From NCBI GenBank assembly GCA_000934665.2, contig JYFJ02000418.1:62001-126000 (forward strand): a stretch of DNA of 64,000 nucleotides. The letters are read 5' to 3'. Below, in pieces: positions 6,248 to 62,418 of the stretch (position 1 is its first letter; each line of letters starts with the position of its first letter). Source of the stretch: Catajapyx aquilonaris. Lineage: Eukaryota. The notes beneath the pieces were generated by a model. It was not told where the DNA came from, ran no database searches, and saw only the letters and a list, made by a program, of their open reading frames with translations. A program made the position numbers and the translations under genes.

Positions 6248-6286
6248 CTGTAAAGCGTGGTCGAAAGGGCCGAAGCACCACGCCAC
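6248..6286 (-). CDS. Candidate 39-nt exon (VAWCFGPFDHALQ) or recursive splice site
   Basis: gtcaacag|GTG...TTACAG|gtaagg; phase 0-0 and open. The acceptor is weak, and the 'exon' is itself pyrimidine-rich, so the site could instead be an AG|GT ratchet point. Confidence 0.28.
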
Positions 6287-7727: not shown

Positions 7728-7820
7728 CTGAGTGAAGTAGGCTGGCAGCACACATCTTTGGTCGTCCAATCGGCTGTTTTGAAGCCGCTCCAGTAGTTCA
7801 AACAGGTCCTGAGTTGTGCC
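7728..7820 (-). CDS. Rap1gap: GoLoco-motif exon of a Rap1 GTPase-activating protein (GTTQDLFELLERLQNSRLDDQRCVLPAYFTQ)
   Basis: Acceptor ttcctttacag|, donor CAG|gtttgt, 93 nt, phase 0-0. The peptide is a canonical GoLoco motif (DLFELL..LQ.SRLDDQR with the acidic-Gln-Arg triad). The QRCVLP continuation resembles Rap1GAP N-termini (human Rap1GAP has DLFEMIEKMQGSRMDEQRC). No GAP domain lies in the window, so the family call rests on this motif. Confidence 0.88.
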
Positions 7821-12146: not shown

Positions 12147-12228
12147 CTTGACTTTATCTTGGTTCTCTGCATCTCCTGAGTCACTGGTCTTTCCTGGACA
12201 GCTCAACTGACTGTCCATCGGCTGCTTC
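12147..12228 (-). CDS. Rap1gap: Internal exon of the Rap1GAP-family gene (KQPMDSQLSCPGKTSDSGDAENQDKVK)
   Basis: Acceptor cttctgttgttgcag|G, donor AAG|gtatgt, 82 nt. Open as phase 2 in / phase 0 out, which matches the phase-0 GoLoco exon downstream. Contains an in-frame ATG at 12218. Confidence 0.65.
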
Positions 12229-35466: not shown

Positions 35467-36290
35467 ATGCGTTTATTTGAAAACAAAATGACTGTATAGC
35501 TTCCGATACCGACAGGTTTCGTCGTAAAGGGCGTGAAATACAAGGCGCGTTTAGGAAGCCGTTACAATGATCAACGACTTCACCTTATTCTTGCGTGAAA
35601 TAAAGGCACGCTAGACCTGCCACACGTCGCGTAAAGTGCGGAAGAAGGCACGCAGGCTCCTGGTCTAATGCAAGTATCGCGTTACTTCGGACACTAACTC
35701 AATTTGCCAATTTGTGGACCGAGTTCCTTTGTCCTGTTGCCTTTTTCGCAGCTTCCGAAGCAACACACGCCTTATAGTGTATAAAACTACGACGATGACC
35801 AAATGAGCTTTTGCAAATTTTTTTGCGACCTCATTTCGGTCCGGATTTGGACAGATAAGCGCGCAGGAAAAAACGTGTGTAATGGAGGTCAGGAAGTAAC
35901 GTGCATGTCACACACCCGGAACCAGTGCAACTGAAGGAAATGGCAAGTAAAAGGGAGTGATTTACAGGTAACGGAGCTTTGAAAAAACCGTCAATTAAGC
36001 ACCGAATCGCCATTTGCGGTGAGTTCCACTCTGAGGTCATCCTTTGGTAGGTTTCCGGTTTAAAAAATGGTTGATTAGCATAAACTTCATTACGTTTCGA
36101 GTGGTGCGGCTCACAAATATTCACAGCGTGTCTTATGAGGATTTTTTTTTTTCAACCTCGACCTCAGCCATTTTTTTTTGCACATTTCCGGTCCAAACCA
36201 CGCCCATTTTTTTCAGGACCCCCCCACTTCGACAGGATCTGACCTTAGACATGTCCCAAAAGTTCCGGCATCACGATGTAATTGCACGTT

Positions 36291-36323
36291 ACTCACCTGC
36301 AAAAAGGAAAGGTACAATTTTAG
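36291..36323 (-). other. Recursive-splice-like site, junction 36297/36296
   Basis: ctaaaattgtacctttcctttttgCAG|GTGAGT: strong pyrimidine tract and consensus donor. Confidence 0.55.
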
Positions 36324-36699
36324 CACATTTGTCATAATCACCACACGAAAAATTTCACACACATTATGTCATAATTGTCAGACAATAAAATCTAAGGATC
36401 TGTACATTTAGTGTTGTAAACACCCCGATTTTTTTTGGAAATAGAAAAAAAAACGCAGGACGTAGCCGACAAAAGCGATTTTCGTCTCCTCGTTTTTTCT
36501 GAGAAGAAATAACATAATAATAATAATAATTGATTGATAATTGATTGGGTATTCGGCTAGCCCCAGAGGGGCCTTCTGCCAGACCTTTATTTCGATGGTA
36601 CAATTTTTTTTGGGAATCCTATTTTTGAAGCGCCCGGGCCCACGGGCAGGATGACAGGAGGGGATGTGCAAAGTGCAGTGAATCTGACGCTGTGGCCAT

Positions 36700-36870
36700 T
36701 TTTAGTGAACTCCCCCGGGTGGTCTAGTCTGTAGGATATACCACCCGAGACGAAGCCAGAGGTGACCCTGAACTCTGCACGAGATGAAGGGGGTGTCCCC
36801 GGGCTGGGATCGAACCCGGGACCTTAACATCCGTGGGCGCGCACGTTACCGCGGCGCCACTCCGTCTCCC
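36700..36870 (-). mobile_element. tRNA-derived SINE (Pol III head); 3' boundary approximate
   Basis: Minus strand reads GGAGACGGAG-TGGCGCCGCGG (A-box-like)-TAACGTGCGCGCCCACGGATGTTAAGGTCCCG-GGTTCGATCCC (B box)-AGCCCGGGG. The anticodon and acceptor stems do not pair well, so it is not a functional tRNA. Confidence 0.6.
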
Positions 36871-39800
36871 CTCAGAGAAGAAATAACATAGGACAGCGTA
36901 GGAAACCGGAAAGCAAAGTTTTCGTCTGCTCCTCCCACGACACCAGCCGTAAATCATTACAGGACGATGATAAATCGCGGCATTTACTCGGTGCGATTCC
37001 AAAGCTGCAAAATTAATAGGCGAACGTGCTGACTTGAGCGCTGGCAGATATTCAGCGCCCAAAATGACTAATTACTTCGCGATGAAGACACATTCGGGTC
37101 CTTCTTTTTTTTCTTCAAGAAAACGCCTCCATTCACGAAGATTCAAGAACTTATCAGCGACGAATCACCAGTTATTATAAGTAAATCTCCTCATTTCCGG
37201 CTCCCCTTCCTTCCTGCCGTCTTCTTCATCTGCATTTACATGTATTTGCACATTAAAAGAGCACTGTTTCCCACCCATGCCGACGGTAATTAACGACTAT
37301 AAAAGACAACTGGGCCATTTACATTCACGTAATTTGCCAAAGTCGAGGGCACAAAAGGGTACTAACTCGGTATAGCAAACATTAATTTGCAACACAAATT
37401 AAGACCAGTTGTTTGGACTCTAATTGTATATTATTGCACGTGCCGACGTATGGATTTTTTTAAACCGGCATTTATGATCAATTGTAAGTGGTAAATTGTA
37501 AATAAATAATTCTATCAATTCCTTCACGCATTACCTCATATAAATATATTTCTCATAATATATTGTAGTCTTATTTTCTCCGTTGATGTTTGTCCGACCT
37601 GATAGTACCACTATCTCTCGCAAAACCTGAGGGTGGCAGGAGTGTGCAGAGGGATCTATGCGTGAAAATAGTACTACGTGGTAAATCGGCGGGCCATTTC
37701 ATTAAAGCTGTTTGATTGTCAGTCATACTGATTACCCAATTTCGGCCACAAGTTCACTAGTAACTGTAGAAATAATCAGAAATATGACAGCCCCCAAGGT
37801 CACCAAAACTGAACCTGATTAATATAATATTCGACGTATTAAATTTATAACCTCCCAACTAATTTGTACCAGATCTTAGAAACAGCTTTTTAAAAACGCC
37901 AAGGCGTATCGTCCCCTGTCACCCAACCAAATAAATGGTTTGACCTACCGAATAGCAATGACCTCTTCCCACATGGCCAGAAGGTTGGTTCTCCGGCCCT
38001 CTCTTATTCCTGACAGCCACGCCCCGGGCGTTCGTGTCGCACGTTTNCCCCCCCAAAAAGACCGGCTGATTAGGACATTCACCTACACTTGTTGTTTCGT
38101 ATCACAGTTACCAGAGGAAACTGTGCACAGGCAACTTCCGGACGACACTGATCTCATTCGTGTCTGAGTATGTGTGTGTAGGTGGCTAAAGCGATACCGG
38201 GCTCCCATTCATGGAGTAACATATCAGCTTAGCAATAGTACGTGCGTCATGTTCTGAGAGTCCATCAAGGTCGATCACTCGGGTCCATCTGTGTGTGTAC
38301 TTCTCTCGGACCGAGACTTAGATAAAAGTGTGGAAAAAACTGAATTCCACCTTACAGAATAATCTATGGCAAGCTTGACAATGCTGAGAACGTGCCTGCC
38401 AAGTGCACGACGCGACGGAAGTTGCTTGCTCAGCACAAGTGTTATTTTCGTCAGGCTTTTTACAGGACTGTACAGATTTCCTTGAATTTCCTGGCAAATT
38501 CCTGCATACATGACTTCGACTAGAAATAAATTAGATTATATTTGCATATCCAGATTTTCTTCTCAAATTATTATTTACTCCGCAGTAATATGTAAACAAA
38601 AGACCGCTTCCTAGTTTGAAGAAGCATTAATTGGCATGGCCCGGGAAAACTTTGCAGACTTAATTACTGCGAACAAAGGGACTTGTCCTAAACGAAAGCC
38701 AGGGCTACATGAAAACTTTTGCACCTGTGTTCCTCCCAGCTTGAGAAACTTGTCGGTGGCTCGTCCACCAAAAACAGGAGTAGCCGCTACTCTAATTAAT
38801 AACTCCACAAACTCCCATTAATAACTCGCTCAATGAGAATTCACACGCGCAAGGTTGGTTATGATTCAACCTCAATAACACATGTTTAGCCTTTATTGTG
38901 ACACTATCTCCTGACAAATGAGGCAATGGAAAAGCAGAGGGACATACCAACGACAATAAATTCAAAGCAAGAGCCGGGTAAACCAGTAGCTGACTGATTC
39001 ACGTGAATGAAATCTAATCCCCGCTCCTATGGCCCCAACGCATTAAATCAGAATTCCTTAGAAGAAGAAGCAAGACGGCCTTGTTGCCCTGGAGCCAAAA
39101 ACAGCGGATTTTCTGCACACGTTTTCCAGGCTGTGAATAGAGAATGAAAAAGGTACCAGATTGACCCTGAACTTAGGGAGGAGAAGGGCATTACCGGAAG
39201 AAACGTAGGTTAAGGAGGTGAAGGTCTTTAATTATAGCGAAGTTATGCGCAAGTTTTGGGTCAGCGTGTTACATGGACTGGTCATGAGGATTACACACCT
39301 ACAGCTACTAAAAAGGGTCCATTCGTCTGGATCACTAAGGTGTGTAATCGGATACAAGTCGTAAATTCTACTTTGCATGCGGCCTGCCACTAACAAACGG
39401 CATTTTGCTTTTATTTATGACCCCCATTTGTTATGAAGTCACTCACTGGGGATGTGAATAATGAGCCAAAATCGGCTAAGGACACACCGAGAAAAAAAAC
39501 AAGATTCCATAAATGAAACGAAGGAGAAACCGGGCATATGGTGGTGGGAGGGCTCAATTACAAGCCACATCAGGAAAGGGCAAGAATGTGTGGGCGAGAA
39601 TGGGAAACAACAGTGCTTTTGAAATTGAAACAAAGCATCGCAGAAGCAAGGACGTGCTTCGAGAGAAGAAAAAAAAAATTATTTGGAAATACCCTTTGCT
39701 AATTAACGCCCCCTTGTGCAAGCTGATTGGCATCGTTTCCAATCGTCGCCAACAATACAAATTACCGGTTCTCCCTCGCCACTTTGATTATTCAACTTTC

Positions 39801-42800
39801 CCCCACCGGTTCCCTTTCGCCAAATCTCCTCCAGCTTTGGATTTTGCCAGCATCCTTGTGATTGATGGCATACAAATGAACTGGGATGTTCGAATCGGAG
39901 CGTATGACCTCGGTTGTCAATTACAGTTCATTAATCAGCATTCATTGCAAGCGGTGGAGGTAAAGAAGAAAAAAAGAGCGAAGTCAGCACTGCACACAAT
40001 TCTGATCGTCTTTTTCTTAAATCCCGGTTCCCTCTGGAGAAGCCAAGCTTCTGGCACACTTGAATCGCCAATCACGCTCTGGGATCAGACGCTGAAATTC
40101 AACTACTTCCTCTTTATTAGAGCATAAGGTCATACGGGGAAATATGGAGCAGAAATGTTGAAAAAACAAGCATGGTGTAACCAGAATCTGCAAAGTTACC
40201 ACGTATTCGCTAAAATAATTTTGAGCAGTTTCATACTAAATTTTAGCAAATTTTCGTCGCCAAAAAGGGCTAATGAGCGAAATTGATAATTTTCTGCCAA
40301 TTTTTAAAGCAATTACTTTTTATTCGGCCAAAATGTTTAATTTTTGAAGCAAGTTTTGTTCATTTATTTGGCACTTTTCTTATTATGTCGCCTACATTTT
40401 GAGTATTACAGACCTTCAAAAATTCAGTTTACAACCGCGTACTGTACTTGAAAATTAAACCTTGCAGTCTTGCCAACCAAATCATCATTGCAAGCAATTA
40501 CACCCGCAAGGCTCGTAAATTAACTTCCCAACGAAATGGCAGGGTTCCAATAGCACAGTAGCAACTCATTATTGCAACCTGCCAGGTGTGTCCTGTAAGG
40601 CGTCTAACTATACACGCCCTTTCTCTCCTGTACTATCTCAATGAAATACGTCGCGTTACTTTCGAAGCATCCAGCATCCTGGTATCAATTGCTCAGAAAT
40701 GTTTGCTCCAGACATTGGTCGTGCAATCGGATTAGATACGGAGAGAGCTAGAGAAAATAAAATGACAACGTCTCTCTTCGGAAGCACCGCAATATCACTC
40801 ACTTCCATCAGGAAGCGATATCAATCCATCAGTTGGGGGGGATTGGATGGATTGGCCCTTTCCACCACTATTCCCAGATGTTTTCAGGAGCCAAGACGGT
40901 CTCTTAATTGGTCAAACACCGGATGTTTGGACCACAAGTTCATTGTAATTGTCCGCAGCAATCAGCAAGAGTGCGAGACATCTTTTTACATAATTACATT
41001 GTTGCAACACATCCTGAATAATAATATTGTGGATTGGCGAAAAACTGCTATTCCTATCAAAAAATAACGGTGATTTGCACTTTAATTTAACCTAGATATT
41101 CCCGTTGATTTTTTAAATAATTTCATTTTTATGAGCAAACGAAGAGCTAATACGAAAACTATTTTAAACATTTTTGTATAGGACAAGGTTAATCTGATTG
41201 ATATGGACGTTTGTAAAATTAGTCAAATATTTTGTGTTCGTGGTGTTCATTGAAAATATAGCCGTGGTCACAATATTTGACTGCTACTTTGCACCGCTAC
41301 TACGCGATTTAGTGGGCCAGCAACCAAACATGCTTTCCGGATTCCACCACCAGCGGGGCAATGTTGCCTTGACAGATCGACCTTAATTTGCAGGGCTGGA
41401 AAAATGGCAGATAAAACGTGGTAGCCAAGGGGCAGTATCAGGCCGGAATGAAACCTTGCAAAGAGATGGAATGTGTGTGTTGTTGCCCTCGCCCCAACAG
41501 TACTCAACTGGCGGAAGGGAGAAAATGGATTAGGTGCCTCCCGGAATCATTCCGGGAGGAATCCTTGGGGAGCTCAGAATGGGGCCCGGAAGTTTCGGAC
41601 AATTGGGCCAAGTAATGGCACAAATCGCATCATTCCGGTGCACCATTGGGGGAGAGGGCTTAAAAACTGACGTCACTTCCGCATTTTTAGGGACAGAAAT
41701 TTGGCACAGTGGGTGCGACCCTGCTCAATTGTCCACTGTTGACATTTGAACTATTTAAACGCAGCAACATGAATATCCTGCCAGGCAATTTTAACGCTGA
41801 CGCACATAATAACAGGGGGTGGAAAAAAAAGTCCCCCCAATTTCCATGCAGCATGGTTGATGGAAATCCCTGAAAACGAGGCCTCATTTCCTCTTCTTTC
41901 CCATCCATGTTTATCCCCCCCCCCCCCATCCCTTTTTTTTAGGACCAAGTCCGCCGTCTTTTCTCATCACAGCCAGTGTCGCCTTCCACACAATTTTTTG
42001 GTAGCTTCACCCAGCAGGATCTCCGGATATGAAAATCCGGAGCTTTGGTGCGCGGTTCTAAATTATTGCTGAAATATCAATCACCCGATCCGATTAATGT
42101 GATCAACGCGGTGTAGAAACAACAGGAGGGTGTTGCGATTACATTAAATGGACCGATGGGGAGGCACAAACATGCGCATGTGGGATCATGTATTTACACA
42201 AAGTACTGACACACCGGAATTTAAATACACATCCACTATTTTATGGTCTCCAAATTCTAGCAAAATTGCGTTCGGACACGTTCGGGGTTAAAAATCGTCC
42301 GTGACGTACTTCCCAAAAATGTCCCAAGATCAGTCATGGGCATGACGCAAGTGGAAGTGCAAAACCGCACCTGGGCGTGGAACTTTCCGGCATGTTTTAC
42401 GAATAGGCAGGGGGGCCCCCAAGAAAAGACGAAGTTCTCATGAAGGCCCATGGAAGAAGAGGAAATGTCTTTTAACCCTCCCAACCCACCCACCAATTCA
42501 CATCTTTGGACTGTTGACCATACCCGAGGCAACAAAGGATGAAGAATGAGGGAGACTCAGACTGACCAAGAGCTCCTTTCAGCATCTAGAGGCTGTTAAC
42601 CTTTTTGCATCGTACCAGAAGACATGGCACCGAAATTTGTTTGTATTCACTCCCGGAGTGCATGGGCGTGACTTATCATACTGCGCAAGAAAAGACAACA
42701 AGAAAAGCTTTCTCCTTCTAAAAGTCCCGCCGACGACGGTTTGTAACCACATCCCGAACCGGAAGACACACCGAACCGGCCAGTGACACACTCAGGGTTG

Positions 42801-43089
42801 TATATATGCAAATATTCTCCTCATTCCCAGGAAAGATCAGGGCTCCGAAAGTGCATGTTAGGAACTAACGTACACGTGTCAATATTGGGGAGATAAGATG
42901 ATGGTCCACCGCACGCGAACCCACTAAAGTGCATCCACTAACCCAAGGGCGCCCTTAATACCTGATCCTTCATGAACCGGACAGGTGGAATAAATTATTT
43001 TGTAGAGAAGGGCACCAACAGTCTGGACCACAATGCTGCCAACTGTCTAACCTAATTCTGGTACGATACACAGATTTTTATATGACATA

Positions 43090-43240
43090 ATTGCCGCCGG
43101 CCAGGGGGAAAAAATCATAAAAATCAATCAGGGGCATATAAGCCCACCAATGCCAAGTTTCAGCACTCCAAGTAGTCTAAAAGTGGGTTAGGTAGCCCGG
43201 ACATACAAACATACTTTCCAGTTTATATTATGAAAGATTT
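43090..43240 (+). mobile_element. Possible non-autonomous Helitron-like fragment
   Basis: gccaagtttca...acatacaaacatac-tttcc...tttatattatgaaagat resembles the microsatellite-plus-AT terminus of such elements. Pattern recognition only. Confidence 0.28.
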
Positions 43241-44794
43241 ATGCGGATGGATATGGAAGCCATACCTTCTAGTCGAGTTTCCTCTGGCCGTGACGGTGTA
43301 AGCGTCTCTCCTTCCCGGACTTGGAAGTTTCATTTTCCAGGGGGGTTCAAATCCCCGGATTTGCAACCAACCGCGTAATCTGCGTGGACCGTATAAACCT
43401 CACGCAGTTTCCCATCACCGGTTCGCAGGACGCATCTTATCCTATGTGTTCTCTCCAACCGAGTCTTCACCACACTAAGAGGCCTCTCACAAAAAGCCCG
43501 CCTCACAAAAGGGCCGTCCATCCTTCTTTTTTACCCTCCTCACAACCCGCTTCTTCCCCCCCTTTTCTGGTAGGCCCCCCTCAACCAGTGGTTCTTAACC
43601 ATGCGACATCCAGGATGACATCATAACCTCTTGATAATTCTTCCACATCCGTTGCCGCTGTTTTACATCATTTCCCGCGCAGCTCCAGCAGGGAGATGAC
43701 TTTACTACAAATGTACGGAGTTGAAGATTGGAGGGCGTGGGTGCTCCCTCTGACAAAAGCAGGAGGAAATGGGTGTCCCGGAGATGTGCTGGCGGGTTAA
43801 TATAATAAGAAAAAAGTCTGGACATGTGCATTATTCAGCGGGCATAATGCTGAGCCTCCGGGTTTTAGTGTTTGCTTGCTGCAGACAGCAGAGTTGGAGG
43901 GCAAACACGGGGGGCTCTCAATATTAACATATGCAGACATGGGGCCCAAATGCACTGCTGGTCCCAAGCTGTCTAAACAATCGTGTAATGTAACGATATC
44001 CTCGATTTAGTAATGCTAGTTATCTTCATCTCGTCAATTCGCCTTCTGCATGATATTATATTTTGCAGTGTGTCACTGGCGTCAAAATGTTGCTCAATTG
44101 TTGACCAATACGTATAATTACTGAAGACATGAAATGTTGGTTGTAACTTGATAATATTGCAAGTCTCTCTATTTTCCAGGCTTATCTCATCATGTTATTT
44201 GAATGTGTTGATGACGACGCTCCACTTTTTCTTCTGCTTATAATGTTGTTGTTATTGCAGTCTTTAGGTGCTGCCCAACAAAGCAGCAACCGTGACACGC
44301 AGAATATTTGAGAAGAAGGACTCGGGCAGACCGCAGTAGCAATACGACATATTTTGTTGAAGGATGAGAGAACTTTTTTCATATACAGTATAAGCAGTAC
44401 TGTACAGTATATTCTATGCATGAGTAAGGAATAAGCTTATGTATTTGTCCATAATAATATACTGCTGAAAATGGTTGGAGGCTGATGCATAACACTCCAA
44501 AAAATTGTGCCCTTCGGACACAACAATACTTCCCTGTTCTTTCATTTTCCCTATATTTCCTTCCATTGCAATTTTTCTCTTTCAGGTTCCCCACACAATT
44601 GATTACCAGGTTGGCTCATACTCCCACATGGCATTTCGGCCCACCCATCCAGCCAGCCAGTTTTCTCTCCTTGTCCATAATATATCCCCCCATCGTGGTT
44701 ACCTTGGCCCATCTCATCTCTCCGGCCGGCAGTCCAGTCCCTCCCATCTCCCCAAATCCAGAAATTATGGTGCCCGTGACGACTATGACGCACC

Positions 44795-44818
44795 TTTTAC
44801 CTGACAAAAACAACACTT
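44795..44818 (-). other. Recursive-splice-like site, junction 44801/44800
   Basis: gtgttgtttttgtCAG|GTAAAA; moderate donor. Confidence 0.3.
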
Positions 44819-45239
44819 CCTTGAATATCGCAATGCTTGGGTCTCACCTTATGCAGAGTAATTCAAATTACCCTTCCAAATGGTGCCGTATGAGAATATT
44901 AATTAAAATGCCCTTGCAACGACGTTCCTCTAAGTATATTCGGACTAATGAGTAATTACGACCGAATCGTGCATTGCATGAGATAAATCGGCGTGAATTT
45001 AATAGTCGCAGGCTTGGTTGAAGGTCGTTTTCATCATTTGTCAGTGAAACATAATCCGCGTATGTACATGCATTAAACGGACTAATTGTTGGCAACAATA
45101 ATGAATATTCAATGCAAATTTGCGGCAATTTAAAAAACACTTGAAACCAACTGTTTATATTGAGGCTACATTGCTGAGGCTATGACAACGAGTGTTGTGA
45201 ACCTTGTTTACAATTTTTTTTTTTGTGCGAGGCATTGTT

Positions 45240-45445
45240 GACATTGGCAACTGAGGCGTTGGAGTTGTTTACACCTGTTGGCCCATCTTAAATGACCGGA
45301 GGTTTGACCGGAAGCCTTCACCCACACCCTGTTGGATCTTATTATGTGATTTGACCCCATGGCAACAATGTTAAGTGTCCCCCCAACAACCAAATGTCAA
45401 CAGTCCTGCCCGTCTGGCCAGAAGCCCGGTGACCACTGACCGGAG
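45240..45445 (+). promoter_or_regulatory. Candidate proximal promoter of the protamine-like gene
   Basis: X-box-like GACCCCATGGCAAC at 45353-45366 (11/14 match to GTTGCCATGGCAAC); three TGACCGGA copies at 45293, 45305 and 45437; TGTTTAC forkhead-type core near 45266. Confidence 0.3.
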
Positions 45446-45510
45446 CGGAAGCAAAAAAAGTCTAACTCCCCCGAATTTCTCCCCCTCCTCTAGATCCGGA
45501 GCCATCAACG

Positions 45511-46044
45511 ATGGCACCGTTGACCTCCAAGACCCGGTCGACCCCTGGGCCAGCAGGGGCCAACCAGGCCGCCTCTGGGTCCTCGCTGGCTGGCCGGAGG
45601 GTGCCCTTCCGCCGCATCCTGATGTCCGCCATCGCCGGACAGAACAAGGGCCGGGAGGGATGCCGCCTGAAGGACATCCAGGGCTACCTGAAGTCCGAGG
45701 TGAGGTCCGTCGGACCTGGCGTTCTGAAGGGGCTGGCCATGGCTCTGAAGCGGGCCGAGAACGACGGCATGGTGGCGGCTACCTCCAAGGGTACGTACCG
45801 GCTGACTGCGACCGGACGGCGGACCGCTAAGACAGTGGACGTCGCAGGACGCAGGAAGGGCGCCCTGAGGGAGTCGGACATCCACATGCTGGAGAGGCGG
45901 AGGCGCAGGAGGCGTCGCGGAAGGGGCCGCAAGGGACGCAAGGGACGCAAGGGCCGCAGGAGGAGGAGGAGGAGGAGGGGCCGCAAGGGCCGCGGCAAGA
46001 GGCGCAGCAGCCGCAGGCGCCGAGTCAACCCTGCCAGGCGCTAG
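45511..46044 (+). CDS. Histone H1-related protamine-like sperm nuclear basic protein: winged-helix (H15) domain plus Arg-rich tail, 177 aa, intronless
   Basis: GC-rich ORF standing out from AT-richer flanks, start acgATGG. Residues ~31-99 follow the linker-histone globular pattern (PF..I...AI......R.G..L..I..YL...L..ALKR....G.V....KGTYRL). Residues 129-177 contain 30 Arg in 49 aa with GRK repeats. Confidence 0.9.
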   Translation: MAPLTSKTRSTPGPAGANQAASGSSLAGRRVPFRRILMSAIAGQNKGREGCRLKDIQGYLKSEVRSVGPGVLKGLAMALKRAENDGMVAATSKGTYRLTATGRRTAKTVDVAGRRKGALRESDIHMLERRRRRRRRGRGRKGRKGRKGRRRRRRRRGRKGRGKRRSSRRRRVNPARR

Positions 46045-46228
46045 CTGGGAGGAGGAGTTGAGACGACGACCCAGGGGCAGAAGCCGTAAGCAACCAGACA
46101 CCGGGTCTTACCACATACACCCTCACCAAAAATAATACCTATATGTACTTCTTTTCGGTACGCATGAGATAAATTTACAGTCATATGCAGTGATGTAACC
46201 ACGGAGATAGCAAAATTGTTTAAAATGT

Positions 46229-46234
46229 AATAAA
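46229..46234 (+). terminator. Polyadenylation signal AATAAA of the protamine-like gene
   Basis: AATAAA ~185 nt after the stop codon; no histone 3' stem-loop seen downstream of the stop. Confidence 0.55.
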
Positions 46235-49200
46235 AATCTTTAAAAATCGCAATTGCCAGTGCAATTACTAACTGGCCCCAGAGAGTACAGGCCAGGTTGT
46301 TTACATTTCAGGTGTTGGGAAGGGAAGGGAAATGGGGGGAGGGGGGAATAAACAGGTAGCCCAGGGAGGGTTGCCAGGGGATGTTTGTTTGCAGAATTTG
46401 CCAGATTGGATCCACTGGACGAGGGTCAACTGGTGGCCTGTTCCATTGCGCCATGGTGACGAGGAGGACGGCAACCGGGAAGTCAATAAACAAGAGGTAT
46501 GACCCTGTAATAATATTGTTCTAATTGCCAATTTCAAAACGTATGGCAAGTACACTAGAAACGTGTAATTATACTGGTGTACAGAGGGGGTCACAAGGTA
46601 AGTCACAGGTCTGTCCTATGACATAGGTCTAAGTGCCTGATCTCACGTGTCCAGATGTAACTGTAACTGCTTGTAAACAGTAACCACCTTGCAACCCCCG
46701 CAAGCATTTGGTATACACCACTTCATTGTCCTTTGCAGCAGATCCATGCTATTCGGTTTGTATGTGTTGTACTGTACTGTACTGAATGGCTTCAGAGATG
46801 TATTTCGCAAAATAATTTCCCAAAGTAGCTAAGAAAATTAATATTGTGCAGTGTTTTTCAAAACAGAACATTCAACGCCTTGGATAAATGGATTTCTCAG
46901 CTAATCTTGACATAATGCAAATAAATGAGATGCATCGCTGTGAACACTCATTATCTTCCCATCAGGGCTTCCTTAGCACCAAAATATACGAAGAGGCAGC
47001 TCGCAATACAAAAACAATGAGTAAGGAAGCCCCCCTCCTTCTCTAATTGCATGCCCGTGCCAGCATCGTTGTTGGTTTTTTTTAGTAGGGGGGGGGGGAC
47101 CGTGGCTGCAGGGAGGGCGGAAGGGCTAATGCTGTTTTAATCAGAATTTAACAACAATCAACTTTCCCATTGCAAACCTTCACTTTCAGGCCGTTGAATC
47201 AGGGTCTTCACATCAGAATAACAGAAAACGCACTACTTACGAACGCAACGAAACAATTAAAAAGGCTTGAAACAAAAGGAGGAACATTTTTCTCATGAAA
47301 ATTTTTGGGTTTACCGACCCCTGATAAAGGTCATCCATACTCTGGAATTTATTGTTGCATTACATTCAGGTAATCTCCCATGTACATTTCTACGTCTATC
47401 ATCTGATACAAAACTGCACAAAAATTATTTACTTTATAATATTAGCACATAGTTATTCTAAACGCGTATATTTATTGCGAATAATATTTTCACTGCCTTG
47501 TACACAGTTGCACATGAGAAGTCTACAGGCGCTCTGCCTAGTTGTATCCATCTAGTTAATTTAAAATTCATGTAATAAGTGGCTTGCCACGCTTTCGGGA
47601 GAACGATACCTTTGCAGGAGACATCTTCCATTTTGTGCGGTCCTTGAGAGAAAAGTTGCGCTGCGACACAAGGCTCGGGCTAAGTCGTTTCTCTTCATTT
47701 TTCCAGGGCGAGACCAAGATCCATCACATAAACTATACTTGATCCCACAGAATCCATCTGCTCGCCCAGAGGCGCACTCTGTACAGATGGAGTTGCCACC
47801 AGTGATAAATTCCAAAATGTCTAATCTCGTTGCACTGACTGTGAGAGGAGGAAGTTGCAATCTTGCTATATTATACGTACGTGCAGCTGTCCACGAGCGC
47901 CTAGATTATTCTCACTTCCTATGCTGATTTCATACGCAAAACTTAATACGCGAAGGTATAAGGCTATGCCACCAAACTTCCGACATCAGGTTACTGTAAT
48001 ATACTGCTGCTCTAATGATGCCTGCGGTGTACAAAGATGAAGACGGCCCAAGTTATACAACTATTGTACATATGGTCTATCACGTAATGTGACGCACAAA
48101 TGGCACGATTTATCTCTGTTCTAGGAAAGCAGAGGGATCCGCCCTTTCCCATTCTGATTATGTAGATTGCAGAATAACAGGTAAACACCGTGCCCTGCCT
48201 TTATGCGAATATTGCAACAATTTCCTGCTAATGGTGATATTACTCCAGCAACAATTATTATTGGCGAATAGTGTTCAACTGTTCATGTCTGAAAGAGCAC
48301 ATATCCTGAATCTCCCGCAACCTTTCAAGCATAGTCGTACATCGGGTTGCCGTCCTCGCAGGATAACCTCGTCCGTTCTTTCCGACAACAGAGGGCTTCC
48401 TAGTCGCAATTTGACACCGTTGATCATGCTATTGTGCTCACTATACCTTTTGCTCCAAGGGTCGTTCATTCCGAGGATCAAATTGGGTTATGAGTTTCAG
48501 CAGCAAATGATTTTTTAAAGAAGTAAATCCGAAATGTAGATTTCCGAGACGGGAGCATGCCGAGTTCGTTGGCTGGGATTCGGAGTCGTAATGACGGAAC
48601 AGCCCGGAGCGCCATCAATAAATTAATTAACAACTTGTCACTTCCTCTTCGTCAGCTCTTAATTGCACCACCGGCTTCCTCTCCCAATCCTTGAGGAATG
48701 TTTCAACTTCTCGCATTCACTCCCACGCACATTTTTTCCCCCTTGTTATATATACACCCCCCTCTTGCTTCTTCTTCCTACACTCTTGAGAAAGTCTCCT
48801 GATGGAAAGGAAAATGTACCTCGGGAACTATGAAACTTCATTATGCCTGGCAGTCTCGTGAATTATCTTTGGGTATATAACTCCCTCAATGACCTCTCCC
48901 TTTTCAGATGTGGCATTCCAAGTATGCAATAAGGAGGAAGGCTGGCATTCCCACCGATGTTGTAACTTGAGACTGAATTTCCGCCTTCTCTTGATTTGTG
49001 CTCGGAGCAAAACTGTCTGCTTTTCCAGCTCCGTATTTTGCAACAAAATCGGCGAAAACACCAGTGGTCAAACTACTTGGTAAGTTTATAAGGCAGGCGT
49101 GATGCGAATCGCCCCTAACAGTTCCTCGGTCATAACGCTGTCCCCCCAAGTAACAACGTAGACACTTTGGACCTGACTACTATAAAGCCATATCCCTCAG

Positions 49201-52200
49201 CGGGTGGGGCCCTCCCGCAGGCTTCATATTAATGGACTCATATTATCTTTAGCGAGGGGCTATTACCCGCAATATCAGACGAGCATCCTCCCTTCATCAT
49301 CTCTCCAAAAACTGGGACTAAAAAACACTTGCAACATGCAATTCCCTATAATTGTCCAATACCATCAACATACACTTCCGATGGGCATAAAACCGAGAAA
49401 ATACAGCTTCTCAATGGTTAAGCATAATTTCGCAGACGCCATTTTTTTCCGGTTCGCTCCAGAGGGCGCCCCCCTACAATTTTAATATGAAGGTATCACT
49501 TTATGGCCCACCGTAAATTTTACAGCATCCATTCGGTTAGGTACTAAAATAATGGGAGCCTGGAAACGACTTCCTCGCTATTTACAACACTAGATCTTCC
49601 GTGGGATGGATGTCACTCTGATCGCGTCCGGAATTAATGCGTCAAAAATGTCGCGACATAATTCAATGTCGGGTGTGAAACGGTCACTGCCCCGAGGCTG
49701 TAAAATGGATTTTACGGGCATTTTTTTTGCGTTAACGGACCTCTTTGGCCAAGGTCAAGCTTTTGCTTCCTTGGTCCATGAGAAAGAAGAGGTTTTCCGG
49801 ACAAGTCACCAAAGTCACGGAATTGCTACGGACCATTAGCTCTTGAAAAAAGGAGGATCAGCATCGCAGGAGTCCTTTGTCCTTTCAACAGGCAGGCAGG
49901 CTTTCTCTTTCGGTGTCACAGGTCACACGTGAGGAGAGGGTCACAAGGGTCAAGTGTTCTTTCAGAGTGTCTAACGGTTTGTCCTTGATGGTTGGGATCG
50001 TCTTATCCGGACAAAAATGGGAAAACTACTCATCCGAATCACTCCACAACCTAATGCACTTGACGATTTTTTTTAAACGGATAAAATACAGGGTGTTTCG
50101 TAATGATTCAAGTTTGCGCTGACCAGGCTGAACCAGTACCCTGTGAGAGGTACGGACACTTCCAGGATATTTATGGTGATGCAGGATGCAAATGGTGTGT
50201 TTTAAGAAATATATGCTGACAAGCAAAATCACTAGGAACCGTGTTATCGGGTTCCGATTTTCTGGTGTACTCGAAGAGATATTTACCGGCCGGGACAAGT
50301 GATGCTATCAGCAACAAAGGACGGCCTGTACAGCACCAAGGGAGAGAGAAACTGATGGCATCAAAGGCAGAGGAAGTGTTCCCTTCTTTTTCATGCAACG
50401 CCGGAAATACGCATCATAAACGCACAATTCATTACCCAGACTTAACAAGTTTTCCTTGGCTTTTTTCCAGTTCGATTAACCCGGTAAATAAGCCGTGAGA
50501 AAGGCTTTTTTTCCAAGGACAGGGTAAGGACTTATGCACTTATGCATTTTATGTCTCCCGATAACAAAGGGAAAAGCAATTCCAGGAGTACAATCCGTCT
50601 CCTGAAAACGGGCTCCAGGAGTACATTAGACCCTAAAAAATGAGAGACCTTTACGCTCGATTTAGCAGAAAAAGGGAGAGGAATAATGATTTTTTCCAAT
50701 GGAAGTCTTTAACAAAGATCAAGATCAAGAAGGATTTTAAGATATAGGTTTCTTTTCAGTGCCGCCAAAAAATTCGGGAGCCAACCCGGAACAAGCAGAA
50801 TATATGTGGTCGTGCAGCTCAAACACGATTGTTTGGTGTCTCTGCAGACTTAACTCACCTGGTCTTCTTGCAGAAGCCGCACGCCGCTTCCTGAATCCAA
50901 ATGAGATCATTATTTTGACCGCACTCCTTACCAATTACCGAGATTCCCTCCGCGAACCTTTTCCTAGGTCAATGCACAGCACAACTTTGCCCGTTTGTGC
51001 TCCTGGTGTCAGGACCCAAGCTCGTTACACCACAAGAAAAAAAACCCTGAAGGGATATGGTGCTAGTGTAAACCATGTTGTCGGATTTGTTGAATCGGAT
51101 TTTGTAACGCGTGAGGCGAATCCAGACTTGAGATTTTCCGAGAGAAGTCGTTAAGGAAGCTGCGTAATGTTCGAGGGTTTTTTTTGGGAGGGGGGGGGGG
51201 AGCATCAGGCTCTCGAGGGATTCAGCAACACTTTCACTTTTTATGGTCAAGACCCAGAGGACACTCTCATCGAAATACCTTACACAGAATTATTGGCCCA
51301 AAATTCAGGGGGGAAAAGTCACGTAATGAGTTATGGCATGTAGGTCTGACAATGGTTGGATGAGAGTTAAAACCAATGTCGACTTTTTTTGGGAGTTGGG
51401 AACCACAATGCTCTGACATTTTCCCTCAGTGTTATTGAACTAAAATTGCCCGCACGTCCAGTGTATGAGCTCATTTCCAGCGCAGCACATGGACTTTCAG
51501 GAATGCTGCTGTGACTGATGTGAAAATTCGAAGCTCGCTTTGCAATATACCGTACCATGAACACACTCGAGGTTGTAAATTTTTCGTATTTAAACTTTTA
51601 ATAGCATCGTACATCCGTTTTTTAATCATTGTGCTGTACAATACATTCAAATGTACGCAAACATTTAAAAAAAGAAACTGATCGACCAATCTGATTAAAT
51701 TAGACTCAAATATCGACCAACTATTTTTTAGTTAAATTTTACTCTAAACCGCCGACCCTATATGTCGCCAAAATATTTCCCAACTTCCCAAGTAACTTTC
51801 CCTCCTTTTAATTTAAAACCTGGCTTTGACTCTCGTCCCTCCCATCATGCTTGCCCGAATCCTGCAACAAACTTCCTACATCTTTGATCACAATAATTGA
51901 GTCTCAAACTTGGATTTGTGATTACCGGAAGCTGCGCATTTCCCTGTGTTGTCTGAATATCGGCATAACTTCACCCTCCTATTAAAGTCTCTCTCCAGTA
52001 TTTGAGAACTCGTCTTCATTCTGGCATTAATGCTTGTGGAACAAAGGCGACTCTTTTATGGCCCAAATTACACGTCGCCAGTGCCAGAAAAGGGAGAACT
52101 TGTTTCTCCAACACAGCGCGTCAAAGCTAGGGCTTTTGTGTGTACCCGAGGGTCCTGCAGTAATCATTCCGGTCCTAACAACAATTCCTTATTCAACCCC

Positions 52201-52871
52201 TGGGGTAGACTCATTCTCTCCCTAGGAAGTCAAAACAGAATTGAAACAATTATGGTGATTTCCACACAAAAAAGGACTGAATTGGTGCACTTTTTTTGTT
52301 GAAAAGACTAAAGAGGGGTCCTGTTTACTTTCGTAATAGTGCCTTAACTTTTCCTCGCTTTACAAATTCCGCTGCCAATAAAAAGAGACCGACGTTCCAT
52401 TATTCCGTAATATGCGGGACGAACGCAATAATTTAGTTCCCTTGCTATTCAGGACGAAATGGGGATTTTTTTTTGAAAAGCCCTGGAAAGACGTAAATGA
52501 ATTTATAAACTAAAGAATGCTCGGATGGGTACTGGAAAGCTGCAGTGTCTTTTTTAGCTCCATCCATTGGTCGCATTTTTGCACGCCTATTTTCACTTTC
52601 AGAAAAAAAGCCATTTTTTGGACGAAAACGACGTCTGTTCATCCTCCACTCTCGCCTTAGAAAGTCCCTGTGTGGAAGAGACCACACAATAACATTGTGT
52701 ACACCAGGAAGGACAATAGTGCACGTGTAAATCTTGTCTTTTCAGGCAGAATTTCCTGTTTTTTCGCTGCTTTTGTGAAGCTAGATCGTGACTATATTTT
52801 TGTGCGCAATTTTTCACAATTTGCATGCAGATTGTACTCACTCTCGCTTTTGAAGAAAGCACACACTGGAT

Positions 52872-52909
52872 TCTTACCTGCAATGAGAGAGAGAGAAAAA
52901 AAATATTAG
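52872..52909 (-). other. Recursive-splice (ratchet)-like site, junction 52878/52877
   Basis: CTAAT branch-like motif, then attttttttctctctctctcattgCAG|GTAAGA: a strong acceptor immediately followed by a strong donor. Confidence 0.55.
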
Positions 52910-55900
52910 ATATACATCCAACATGCCAAATGTAAAATTCAAGATTGGTCCCACCAAAAAAAGATCTAACGGCCCTTCTGGTCCATAGGCCCGCACCAGC
53001 AGATTTCCAAAAGCGAGGTTATGACACCCACGCTGACTGTACAATAAAGCCGGAATGCATAATTTACAGCTATAAGAACACCGTCGCACAATTTACATTT
53101 TGGCAACCCCTCTAAAAAACGCTGTGGCCAAATATATTCAGCTCGTCTTCTTCGTGTGAAGAGGTCACTTTCTACTGATGGTAGAGGTGGGTAGTATAAC
53201 TTGACAGATTGCTGCCTCCGTTTCAGGAACAAGTTTATCTATTTGTATGCTAGACTTGCCCGCTCGCATCACAGGCGGCCATGATGACAGCCAGACAAGG
53301 ACGACAATGGGAACTGGTATAGGGAACCATGCCAGTGGTCAGCAGATTTTCAGGCCTTTGGGAGGCTGGTTTGCCCAGATACCGGTGTCTTACATCAATT
53401 CAGAGGCAGCCCCAAAGTCAATTAGATGTATCTGATGGGACGAGCCCAGAATTTACAAACCTGAAGAGGCGATTGGAGACAAATTGCGTCGTATTCCTAA
53501 ACACACATGGGAAGATTCCAGCTGAGGCCATTACGGCTTAATCCGCATTTGTCACAGTAATGGACGCTAAGTAACGGGATTTCCATAATAAGGAAGGTTC
53601 ATATTTTTCGTGCGCGTGATTCGGCCTGTAATAAACTGACGGGAGTTTGCTTATTACTTGGAATTATCTCGCGGCATTTCAGTGTGTGTGTAAGGAAATA
53701 ATCCACGCACACCGCCATAATTATACTGGTGGCAAAAAAATTTCAATTAGTTGCGCAAAAACTTTCTTCCAGATGCTAAAACATCCGGTCCGAAGCGACG
53801 ACCTTTCATGTCTGACGTAACTAACATCTGCCACTTCTTATCCCACCAATTTGTCATCGTGGCCTGCAAATGGCGATAGAACATGCAATCCGATTATTTC
53901 AAATAAACATCAATTGTTTCACCCAAAACTATTAGGTGCGTCTGTGGTTCAGCAGAGAGCAAAATAATTTTTCAGACCCAAAATTTTCCAGCCTCATTTT
54001 CCAAACGGAATTCACGTGGCAGCATCATCAGACAGACACAAATTAATCTCTTCTCTCATCAAGCACCTACCCAACCCTCTGGCTCTCTGCACCTTACAGC
54101 AAAAGCCACTCTGGCTGTGCGGTTTTCCTCCGGGGAAGGTCCACCAGCCCAGCATGCAAGTTCATTTGGAAGCTCGTTCCTGGCGACGCTTGAAGACTCT
54201 GCAAACTGACAATTGCAAGCCTATTTGCCAGCGGTCTGCAGGAAGCGAGAGGGGTTTTCTGGATGGACGACGAATGGGGAACGCCTGATAATTAGCTCCT
54301 CCAGAAAACGGGACACCTCAGCTTGCTTGACTTTCAAGAGGGGGGGCCAAAAGGATTCCCCAGGCAAGCAACTCTGTCGCGCTAACAACACTGATTTTCA
54401 CGAGGGGTTGGATGTGCTGACTTAATTGCGTGCCATCGTGCTATATGGCAAGGGGAACCAATCGATGCTTCTAGATGCTGGCTTAATTCGGATGCGCAAG
54501 TAATTACACCAGGGGTAATTAATGGGGTTGATCATCTTGCTCCAGTGTCAACTATACCTATGTGTATATAAGGGAGTTGACACTATATGCCTTGAGAGCA
54601 ACGTGTGTCGTATGCATCCAAATTCGTAAATCATATAATCTGATTGAATTTTAAGCGGGGCCGTATTTAAATGCAATTACCTGCCGTTGCCTGATTTACA
54701 AGATGAGGTTGCATATGGTCGATATTACAAATGCATATGTATATTCGGCGCCCCTTTGGAAGCGAATGTCCCCAAACTTTTCCCCCCAGCTTTTTTTATA
54801 TTATACAAGCCGACAGCCACGGTATGGAAATGAGCACTTTATAAGAGAAATCCCCTGCTGATGAATCACAATGCTGATACATCACTTGCAGCCTTATTAA
54901 AACTTTTTTCATAACGGTTTGAGTGATAAATTTTCATGAGCTCTTTTTTTCCTTCTCTTCTTCATATTTCTAGATCCTGTCACCTCCTCCCGATGTATCG
55001 ATTGTCCTGCTTTTAAGACGAGGCCATATTACTTCTCATTGGATGCCGCGTAAATCACGGGTGCAAACCATGCACATAAAATGCTATTAGTGTCGCCTTA
55101 ATTCCGGCAGTAATTAAATAGGACATGCCCACTAAGCTATGCGGCGATCCAATTACAATAAATCCGACGAGTGGCGATCCCTTTGCCAGGTGAACGAACC
55201 TGCACAAAAACCAGCTGATAGGCTGCCTTTTGACTCGAGTAAAAAAAATTCACAATATGGCGAGCCTCTGACATAATTCAATTCGATCCTTATTTATAAT
55301 TATTATAAGCGATTGCGATCTGGATGTGAGTAGAATTAGATGTGGGATCGGTTACAGGGAACAAATCCAAAAATAATTGTGACAGCCGTCTAAACAAATC
55401 AGACTCGTTTGGACCCTTCATTTTCATGTATACTGGTTTCCTTCTATGGAAGCGAAGAATGTACCATTTATGAACGACTTTATCGACATGTGTAATCCTC
55501 GTTTAATCCTAGTTCTCTCCACACCCTGCGATCACCCGGTATAAACAGTAGTGTCAATCAAAATCAGGTGTTAATTTGATAAAAAGGTTGGTCCACCCAA
55601 CCCTGATTCAATCACACCTAACTGCCTTTGAGATGAAAAACTTGGTTTGACAACCATGGCAAGAAAACGCTAGGATACTAAATTTTCAAAAAAAACTGTA
55701 ATTAACGTTTTTTTTGAAAGTAAAGGTCACAGGTAACGGTAAGTCTTCCGGATCAGCCCACACATACCCCCATTATCCTAGCCATTATCGGTTGTCAAGG
55801 ATCCAACCTCCCCTTACATAACAATGTACTTTAATTGCGGTGCTGGGGGGGACAATAGAAGGTGTTTTTTTAAAAGGGGAGGAACAAGTGATGGTATGGT

Positions 55901-58900
55901 TTAAAAACATCACAAGGCCGGTTGGGAAGGTCGGTGTGAAAAATTCGTCAAAAAGAAATCGTGAGAAACGGTATCTTCCGGCACCTTTTTCGGTGTTTAA
56001 TCTGACCTACCCGAGTTCGCAAAAATTGGGTCAAAAAATATGCGATAAAACCACATGGGGAGACAATGGAGCAGACATGGGCGTGGCGGAATTTGCAGCA
56101 GGTCAAGGGCGTTTTTACGACTGTTATTGTGCCATTCTGGCGCCTGAAAAAAAATTAAAGCCGCCGCAAACTTTTGGTGACCGCCGCACACACAAAAAAA
56201 TCGCGAATCAAAAGAGCATCCAAGCCGAACACAGATTGGCAAACTGGCCTGGCCAAATGCCACGTCCGATTCTAAAAGACTGTTACATGGCAGCAGTTTT
56301 GTGATAGGCATTTCACCCTATTTTTTTTATACCAGCCAGAAAATTGTTCCAGGATCCCCAAAAAATGCTATTTTCCCCGCCCTAGTTTGAAACGATGTCA
56401 AATATTATGGAAGACTCGAATAATGAAGAGAATTAATGAGACTGACGCAGCTGAAAGGATCCGTAGGTTAAGATAACATTTTTTAGGACAATGTGAATGG
56501 GAGTTCGTCATACCGTGTTTTTAGATACCACAGTATCATGTGCTGTTTTTTTTCCTAGTGAGGGACCGCTGTCCGACCCAGAGTGTATGCAAAATATTTG
56601 CCTTCCTTCCTGACCTTTACATGGCCATGGGAATCGATCTCAATATTTATCCTGGCTTTGAAAAAAAACCTGTTTTGACGAGGTGAGAAAAACGTGATTC
56701 GAAACGCCCCCTTTTTTACCTCAAAGGCCAAAAAAATGTACCTGTACAGTACAGGTGAAGCGTATTTTTAACTTTAAAAAATCACACTTTGTAAAAGTTA
56801 TGGCGGCTATTAGTGCACATTTGGCCATTCCAAGTCAAGTGTCCCGCAATGCAGTCATCAATCCTCTTTACCAAATGGAAAAATCACGCCCACCCCTATA
56901 ATGATGGTGTACCACTCTTCTCTCTAGTTTTTTTTTGGTGCTTCCAATCTAAACAACGATTTGTGCTGTTGTTGGGCCAGGCACGCTGGAATTGTCGACA
57001 GCAGGACAAATTTAACACGCAGCGAAAGTGCTATAAAAGTCAAGCGACTGCAAACCGTACATTTGCATCGGTTTGCATGCCCCTAACGTTTGATTAAACT
57101 ACATCAAAAAAATCCTACCATGCAAGAAATTTCTGTCAGTATAACAAATAAGATAGCGTGCCATTTTAGGTTGGAAGTTTTATTAACGTGGTGTATACTC
57201 GGCTTGATAATAACCGTGTTCCTGTCGCCCATTTTTACTTCCATATACGCTTTCTACATGCTGGTCCGGTCCTTAAACTTTCCTTTTCGGGAGGATAAAT
57301 AATTCTCTGGCGCCGGTGCTTGAAACTAGCAAAAAAATAGGGACACAGAGGAAAGTTTTGTGACCGGTGCATAACCTAACCCAAGAATATTTACCTACCA
57401 TTATTTAAGAGTCGCATCAACACTAGGTCTATTCTCTGTTCCTATAGAAGGTAAATGCTGCAGTATCAGAATGGGCCAGAGTCAAGGGGGAGGATGAACC
57501 TTATTTTCTGCTCCGCCGCTTGCCCAAATTGCCTGGCTATCGGTTATGGTAACAGACCAGCTCCTGCTTCCAAATCCAGGCTCCAGAGTTCTGTCTCCTT
57601 TAAAAAAATCTCGAAAAAATCCTAGCAATCAATTCAGGCTTGTAACGTTCAACAAGAAAGGAGGAAAGTTCCCGTATTGTTGTGTACCAACAGTGCATAA
57701 TAGTCGGGATAAAAACGATCAAAAGCAGTCCACCACAAACGGCCTGGCTTGTGCTCCTAGAAACGGTTTTACCCTCGGTTTAAGTGCGGACAAACGATTC
57801 GAGAAGAGCTGCAAAACTGGCCGCAAAACAACTATACGATGGCGCTCTTTTCCGCATCGTAATAAATGTAACCTCCAAAAAAATTCCGGGCCATTACGAT
57901 GTTAATCAGGACGCAATCATTGTCACGCTCTATTTAGCTGGCCAAATTATATACGTATGCACTATGAGGATTTGAGTCAACAGACAAATTAAGAGACGGA
58001 TTTGACTTAGATAACCGGATCTGGTGAGCCTTCCTGCTTCCTCGACTTCTCTTTTGGTCGTGTTCAGACTGCTTAGAAGCGAATGAAATTACTCGCCCTT
58101 CGTTACCTCCTGATGAGAAATTAGGTTACGGAGACAATTTTGTCTCGTTGGCGAGCCCATTCATACAGCGGTTATGGTTTTTTGTAGCCATTTTTTCCTC
58201 TCTTTTTTAGCACCTCTGTGGGTCTGGGCTTCAGCACGCAAACTGGCGACGACTCTGGAATTGCAAAAATGTCTCTTCGCATTTTCCGCAATTTATTCGT
58301 CCCGACCGTTAGAATTTTACCCTACTGAGGATATAAAAAAATATATAGGCAGAGCGAAGGGAGGGGGGGGGGGGTGACATTCGCCTCATTTGGCTTCGTG
58401 CACTTTGGAGGAAGTTTCAATAAAACCAGCAGTAAACCAATTCGTAAGCGGCTGGAGTTTATTGCCCGCACTTCCTCTGATGGAACTCATAGTGTCCCCG
58501 CTGAATTGTATAGACTTTTTTTTGCATACCCGGCATATATGAAAACATTGGCACGTGGACGAAAAAGTTCTTGCGAATATTCCTTCAATAACGGACTGGC
58601 GAACCTTAATGATCCAATAATAGCCTGGTGGTCAGTACTCGCTTAAATTAATAAAAAAAGAGACGAAAATCCCCCTGGAGGCATGACGCAGCTTCCTTCC
58701 TTGATTGATATGCCAAGATTTACTCCCGGCCATCGCATTTCAACATTCCGGTTTCATCAAGCCCGGACCACCTAGGGCGACTCGTTTCGGACCAGACCTG
58801 AATACTCAAAACCAGAGTCCCCCTCTTCCACTTCTGTCTGATGCTGTGTGTGCTCTCTCCCTAGTCAGTTGGGTTTGCTCAACTGGCAGCCAGCCAGGAC

Positions 58901-59043
58901 ATGGACCGTGTCCACCACCATCACTCGGACAATGTTCGCTCAGCATAAGATGGCATCAATGTATGGCCCCAGGAGACAGGCCAGTTCGATTTCCAGACTC
59001 GACCGTGTGGGGGAGGGTAAAAGGTACGATTTTTTTCCATGGT

Positions 59044-59072
59044 CTGTACCTAAGGGAAAAAGAGGGGGAGTT
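59044..59072 (-). other. Weak recursive-splice-like site, junction 59050/59049
   Basis: ctccccctctttttccctTAG|GTACAG: strong acceptor, weak donor. Confidence 0.22.
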
Positions 59073-62302: not shown

Positions 62303-62418
62303 CTTCCACTCAGCCTTCGTTTGAGACTCAGCATGGTGACAGGGGATTCTGAGAACATTTCCTGCTGTTCCCCCGTGTCTTCAGGCAGCAGATGCTCCAG
62401 CATCTGAATCCTCAGCAT
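62303..62418 (-). CDS. Rap1gap: Putative first coding exon of the Rap1GAP-family gene (MLRIQMLEHLLPEDTGEQQEMFSESPVTMLSLKRRLSG + AG)
   Basis: ATG in good context (gtcgccATG), 38 open codons + 2 nt, then donor AG|gtatgg. The phase-2 end joins exon 12228-12147 in frame (AG|G = Arg, giving ...KRRLSGRKQPMDSQ...). Assignment to the gene rests on phase compatibility, not transcript data. Confidence 0.6.

Follow-up and report, generated by a model that had tools for sequence, protein, structure and literature searches.

The minus strand of a 64-kb stretch of the Catajapyx aquilonaris genome (contig JYFJ02000418.1, positions 62,001 to 126,000; hereafter the window, in whose own coordinates all positions are given) carries, judging by the homology of its exons, the 5′ portion of a rap1 GTPase-activating protein 1 (rap1GAP) gene of arthropod type. 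The long first intron of this gene contains two sites, 52878/52877 and 36297/36296, at which an acceptor and a donor directly adjoin at AG/GT (the slash marks the junction), as they do in the ratchet points of Drosophila. From the exon model and the sequence features described below we infer the use of these sites. The reading that we favour, with a confidence a little above even, is that the intron would be removed by two-step recursive splicing at 52878 and 36297, in segments of 9.4, 16.6 and 24.1 kb, and that 36297 would be common to the transcripts of both alternative first exons of the gene.

Two candidate ratchet points and their host gene

The two sites have the following layout:

Candidate ratchet point 1: 52842..52909, minus strand; CTAAT at 52909-52905, TTGCAG ending at 52878, donor GTAAGA from 52877.
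Candidate ratchet point 2: 36244..36323, minus strand; CTAAA at 36323-36319, TTTTTGCAG ending at 36297, donor GTGAGT from 36296.

To rank them, every AG/GT of the window was scored on both strands (n = 435; 206 on the plus and 229 on the minus strand) with an acceptor-plus-donor matrix. This is a rough position weight matrix built from generic metazoan splice-site frequencies, so that its bits are an uncalibrated ranking device. Site 52877 comes first of the 435 with 14.2 bits and site 36296 second with 13.7 bits. Both carry TT at positions −5 and −6, within tracts in which 15 of 16 positions (52877) and 14 of 16 (36296) are pyrimidines. A branch-like motif stands upstream of each, recognized by its letters only: at the first site CTAAT, whose A falls at −29, and at the second CTAAA, whose A falls at −24. 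Upstream of the acceptor, 52877 has a zone of 86 nt free of any other AG, and 36296 one of 93 nt.

Each site also heads a short cryptic exon. At 52877 this exon would be 36 nt long (52877-52842) and is followed by GA/GTGAGT at 52841; at 36296 it would be 53 nt long (36296-36244) and is followed by AAG/GTCAGA at 36243. The donor that would be regenerated by splicing to the first site scores 7.0 bits, compared with 2.4 bits for its downstream donor, and the corresponding values for the second site are 7.9 and 3.1 bits.

The exons around these sites, whose ends were set from homology and reading phase, are as follows:

Exon 1a, coding part: 62303..62418, minus strand; ATG at 62418, donor AAG/GTATGG after 62303, ending in phase 2.
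Exon 1b, alternative first exon, coding part: 43266..43333, minus strand; ATG at 43333, donor AAG/GTATGG after 43266, ending in phase 2.
Exon 2, 82 nt: 12147..12228, minus strand; acceptor TGTTGCAG/G at 12229/12228, donor AAG/GTATGT; tblastn match to homologue P0111 with E 0.003.
Exon 3, the GoLoco motif exon, 93 nt: 7728..7820, minus strand; Pfam PF02188, flanked by TTTACAG/ and /GTTTGT.

The assignment of the gene starts from the GoLoco motif (PF02188 at 7662-7859, E 9.4e-8), the sole Pfam match among the minus-strand open reading frames (ORFs) scanned, namely the first 150 of the 309 with at least 48 aa (179-31798). A search with the GoLoco frame returned 209 proteins with E ≤ 1; where these bear a name, it is in most cases that of an insect rap1 GTPase-activating protein 1. 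The two best protein matches diverge from the window just outside exon 3. The conserved short exon that precedes the GoLoco exon is exon 2. It is here that the long intron has its true acceptor, and the codon left incomplete (AG) by either first exon is finished by the first base of exon 2. When the N-termini of homologues were compared with the window by tblastn, the first 16 residues of exon 1a were found to resemble the N-terminus of a rap1GAP isoform from Periplaneta (P0075; E 4.9e-4), and exon 1b to resemble the rap1GAP N-termini of Cryptotermes (P0079) and Schistocerca (P0035). A homologue search with exon 1a alone, as a 45-aa reference, gave seven candidates, none of them with E ≤ 10. 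Joined by script, exons 1a, 2 and 3 make 291 nt and exons 1b, 2 and 3 make 243 nt; both joins are in frame and stop-free, and their products align with the homologue N-termini from M1. The features that mark a rap1GAP gene are present, with an N-terminal GoLoco exon, a conserved short exon before it and alternative first exons. The call rests on these N-terminal exons, the Rap-GAP domain lying beyond the window.

Measured from exon 1a, the first intron spans 50,074 nt (62302-12229); the intron that starts at exon 1b spans 31,037 nt (43265-12229) and is nested within it. Site 36297/36296 is inside both. An earlier note on this DNA had placed a donor after 62303, at the head of a long intron. 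The donor is there (AAG/GTATGG), with an exon 1a model that reads in frame, and the long intron exists; it runs to 12229, well beyond the span (36291..59072) with which the note dealt.

Two features of the donors of this gene may be recorded here. The last ten bases of exons 1a and 1b, counted across the junction as GAAG/GTATGG, are identical, as is their phase. Moreover, none of the four real donors (GTTTGT at 7728, GTATGT at 12147, and GTATGG at both 43266 and 62303) reads GTRAGT, and both candidate ratchet points would regenerate a donor far stronger than the exons' own.

If the two sites act as Drosophila-type ratchet points, the first intron would be removed co-transcriptionally in pieces. 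In a first step, exon 1a would be joined to the acceptor ending at 52878, with the loss of 9,425 nt, and the donor AAG/GTAAGA would be recreated. From this donor a second step would lead to the acceptor that ends at 36297, with a further 16,581 nt lost and AAG/GTGAGT recreated; a third would join the latter to exon 2 at 12228 and take out the remaining 24,068 nt. Transcripts begun at exon 1b would enter the pathway at ratchet point 2, losing 6,969 nt and then the same 24,068 nt. Both sites would probably be recognized first as the short cryptic exons described above (36 and 53 nt), each closed off by its weaker downstream donor; the stronger regenerated donor would then outcompete the downstream one, and no residue would be left in the mRNA. 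Retention of either cryptic exon would place a stop immediately after either first exon (AG+G TAA for the first cryptic exon, AG+G TGA for the second).

Comparison with known recursive splicing

The ratchet points of Drosophila (Ubx, kuz, osp, fz, luna and others) are built, like 52877 and 36296, of an acceptor and a donor juxtaposed at AG/GT. TT stands at −5 and −6 in 196 of the 197 fly sites, their pyrimidine tracts are more pronounced than in ordinary acceptors, and branch points lie at −36 to −21 (Duff preprint, 10.1101/006163). The two sites of Catajapyx share the TT and the prominent tract, and have branch-like motifs at −29 and −24, the second of which is not a strict YTRAY. Fly host introns measure 11.3-132.7 kb (45 kb on average) and are removed in segments of 2.6-63.6 kb (10.1101/006163); the first intron described here, of about 50 kb, and its predicted segments of 7-24 kb fall within these ranges. 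According to the parts of Pai (2018; PMC6110457) on which we draw, 63% of fly introns above 40 kb have a high-confidence recursive site, recursive sites are enriched in first introns, and segments are typically about 9-15 kb long.

The resemblance extends to the cryptic exons. In the passages of Joseph (2021; PMC8605326) used here, the fly ratchet point heads a cryptic exon of about 50 nt, generally out of frame, whose donor is weaker than the regenerated one, and this pattern predicts exclusion of the exon by re-splicing. The 36- and 53-nt cryptic exons, with a weaker downstream donor and a strong regenerated donor, have the same arrangement. The host differs from Drosophila: it is an arthropod in which the alternative first exons of the gene resemble those of cockroach, termite and locust proteins, and its sites are predicted ones.

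The vertebrate recursive-splicing (RS) exons, as far as they are covered by the same passages, offer a second comparison: there too the definition of a cryptic exon precedes its removal, which is effected by the donor at its own 5′ end, and inclusion of the exon gives a premature stop. Intronic sites that are fully suppressed are described there as few in vertebrates, and expressed RS-exons as numerous (Sibley et al., 2015, as cited in PMC8605326). Set against that partial account, the motif strength and the long-intron setting of the two candidates fit the fly class better than the vertebrate one.

A third comparison is with the locust NPF1 gene, for which the portion of the report cited here (PMC8892266) gives a recursive site predicted with the fly matrix in a 230-kb intron and supported by U2AF65 immunoprecipitation. 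The rap1GAP candidates resemble that site, as described there, in their long intron, in their non-dipteran arthropod host and in being predicted. They differ from it in the gene concerned and in that the U2AF65 support belongs to the locust site, the candidates here being based on motifs. A search of the literature found no paper that joins recursive splicing with Rapgap1.

Chance, cassette exons and longer chains of sites

The principal alternative to recursive splicing is chance: in a 50-kb intron a pyrimidine tract, a CAG and a GTRAG may come to adjoin fortuitously and not be used regularly by the spliceosome. We consider this unlikely, though it is the rival to be taken most seriously, and the site that best illustrates it lies on the other strand:

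Antisense control, 24391/24392: 24370..24398, plus strand; TTTTGCAG/GTAAGT; 10.6 bits, rank 3 of 435.

We confronted the observed sites with three null expectations drawn from the window itself. In null (b), all upstream-of-AG scores of the window are combined with all downstream-of-GT scores, which keeps the real distribution of pyrimidine tracts; for the minus strand it predicts 0.004 sites of at least 13.7 bits, against the two seen, and 0.095 of at least 10.6 bits. For null (a), acceptor-like was defined as at least 11 pyrimidines in 15 positions plus a YAG. On the sense strand a GTRAG follows three of the 157 acceptor-like sites, compared with an expectation of 0.35 (P 0.0055), and on the antisense strand one of 170, compared with 0.25. 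When only the strongest acceptor-like AGs are retained, as in null (c), two of nine sense sites are followed by GTRAG versus 0.020 expected (P 2e-4), and none of the seven antisense ones. Sites of at least 12 bits number two in sense and none in antisense, a count of low power in one 64-kb window. The description of 52878 and 36297 as 'textbook' sites in the earlier note is borne out by their ranks and by the roughly 0.004 such sites expected per strand.

The length of the AG-free zone provides a trait that played no part in choosing the sites. Among 43 other strong acceptor-like AGs (45 in total, both strands) its median is 28 nt and only two reach at least 86 nt, compared with 86 and 93 nt at the two candidates; the two real acceptors of the gene have 40 and 91 nt. 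Such long zones are the pattern that would be expected from selection for a working 3′ splice site, and they argue against chance. They also separate both sense sites from their antisense look-alike, whose acceptor AG is preceded at 10 nt by another AG. Since the spliceosome would meet that AG first, 24391/24392 makes a poor acceptor. Its tract has 12 pyrimidines in 16 positions. The earlier note had added the caveat that a comparably strong site exists on the plus strand: the site is indeed present, and its claim to comparable strength is weakened by this 10-nt zone, against 86 and 93 nt. A plausible donor, AAT/GTGAGA, stands 49 nt downstream of it. As for genes on that strand, 150 of the 151 plus-strand ORFs of at least 69 aa were scanned and gave no Pfam match; an antisense non-coding transcript may run through 24370-24398.

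Repetition within the window was also considered. The 600 nt around each of six sites have as their only other matches in the window one 17-nt and one 42-nt stretch; the 600 bases around each candidate occur there once, and the candidates are therefore not members of a repeat family in the window. For conservation of the second site, a degenerate pattern of 20 nt was searched for in metagenomes in a single scan, which gave 14 loci, all of them chance matches; a blastn match to the window was obtained for two of the 14 and consists of the 21-nt motif itself.

Several points count against recursive splicing at the two sites, and some of them speak directly for chance. Both sites are known here from their motifs alone, and they were ranked with a rough, generic matrix and with thresholds set after they had been seen. 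A third good match is found on the antisense strand, which bears no evident gene, and such sites can accordingly arise with no known function. This 10.6-bit antisense site is itself expected only 0.07 times, so that nulls built from the window may understate chance. By a rule in the style of the literature there are three sense sites and one antisense site, which in a single 64-kb window has low power. The CTAAA of the second site departs from a strict YTRAY branch motif, and downstream donors as good as those seen occur at about 7% of random positions and add little. To our knowledge, zero-nucleotide recursive splicing is well documented only in Drosophila. The only other insect case that we found is the predicted locust site, as given in the cited portion of that report (PMC8892266).

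A second alternative accepts the sites as acceptors and dispenses with re-splicing: the 36- and 53-nt segments would be ordinary poison or untranslated cassette exons, sometimes included and then leading to nonsense-mediated decay. The plausible donors GA/GTGAGT and AAG/GTCAGA 36 and 53 nt downstream could serve such exons, their inclusion would give a stop directly after either first exon, and the long AG-free zones, which support a real acceptor, are silent on re-splicing. Nevertheless, that two cassette exons should both start with a near-perfect donor (GTAAGA and GTGAGT) would be an odd coincidence, and the excess of the regenerated over the downstream donors is the fly pattern that, in the passages of PMC8605326 cited above, predicts exclusion. 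We hold this explanation to be improbable.

The remaining alternative extends recursive splicing to a series of sites. The earlier note had listed four minus-strand AG/GT sites, all of which are found where it placed them; besides the two candidates they are:

44801/44800: 44795..44820, minus strand; TTTTTGTCAG/GTAAAA; −2.0 bits, rank 39 of 435.
59050/59049: 59044..59072, minus strand; CCCTTAG/GTACAG; 7.3 bits, rank 5 of 435.

Neither of these weaker sites survives as a ratchet point, being no better than background. Site 44800 was rejected for its G at −5 (TG at −6 and −5), its 8 pyrimidines in 16 positions, its donor GTAAAA, an AG only 13 nt upstream and the absence of a downstream donor; it lies about 1.5 kb upstream of the exon 1b start codon, probably within the promoter or leader region of that exon. 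Site 59049 was rejected as acceptor-like only, with CC at −6 and −5 and the donor GTACAG; it owes its rank to the pyrimidine tract alone and is without a downstream donor. A series of steps of about 8-9 kb by way of all four sites, or at a minimum of 52878, 44801 and 36297, is thus very improbable: all four AG/GT are present, the path from 62303 to 52878, 44801 and 36297 is evenly spaced and its steps recall the typical fly segments of the cited parts of PMC6110457, but 44800 fails on each of the features just listed, in a position just ahead of exon 1b, and 59049 would regenerate AAG/GTACAG at 0.5 bits, where nearly all fly sites of 10.1101/006163 have TT in place of its CC. The arithmetic of the proposed steps (9.4, 8.1 and 8.5 kb) is right, and the evenly spaced chain breaks at 44801. 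What stands of the earlier proposal is putative recursive splicing at 52878 and 36297, a reasonable reading that is now better supported, and what falls is the four-site series.

Other features of the window and significance

One more site on the minus strand stands out:

6248/6247: 6240..6270, minus strand; CTTTACAG/GTAAGG; 7.7 bits, rank 4 of 435.

It is found 1.5 kb beyond the donor of exon 3, within the next intron, which runs off the window. It has TT at −5 and −6 and an AG-free zone of 37 nt, and is without a downstream donor. By its motif it might be a third ratchet point of the gene.

The window has a G+C content of 44% and is continuous apart from two single Ns, at 38047 and 59914; no Rfam family and no tandem repeats were found in it. 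Its highest G+C content (0.488) is reached at 44001-46000, upstream of exon 1b, and this stretch may contain the exon 1b promoter. An ORF of 178 codons on the plus strand at 45511-46044 looks like a winged helix in its middle and ends in a long arginine-rich tail, and ORFs on both strands overlap it (45371-46107). It gave no Pfam match, and a search of 1,741 candidates yielded no homologue; the reading as a nested histone-like gene was dropped, and the ORF is probably an accident of the G+C-rich sequence and not a gene. Finally, two metagenome contigs unrelated to the window (L005 at 1285-1304 and L008 at 1501-1520) contain an identical ratchet-like stretch, eight T followed by GCAG/GTGAGTAAC, which is probably one eukaryotic sequence sampled twice.

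The reach of the fly-type form of recursive splicing across those arthropods whose introns are much larger is poorly documented. The rap1GAP locus of Catajapyx offers a clean candidate pair in a conserved signalling gene, with one of the sites common to two alternative first exons. Going by these motifs and the exon model, we give about an even chance to the broader proposal that zero-nucleotide splicing of the fly type operates here outside Diptera and that 36297/36296 would be a relay for two promoters, the 1a and 1b transcripts converging on it before a final 24-kb step. If the sites turn out to be unused, the locus would be a useful warning about prediction from motifs alone. If the proposal is true, ratchet points could act as common relays for alternative promoters.

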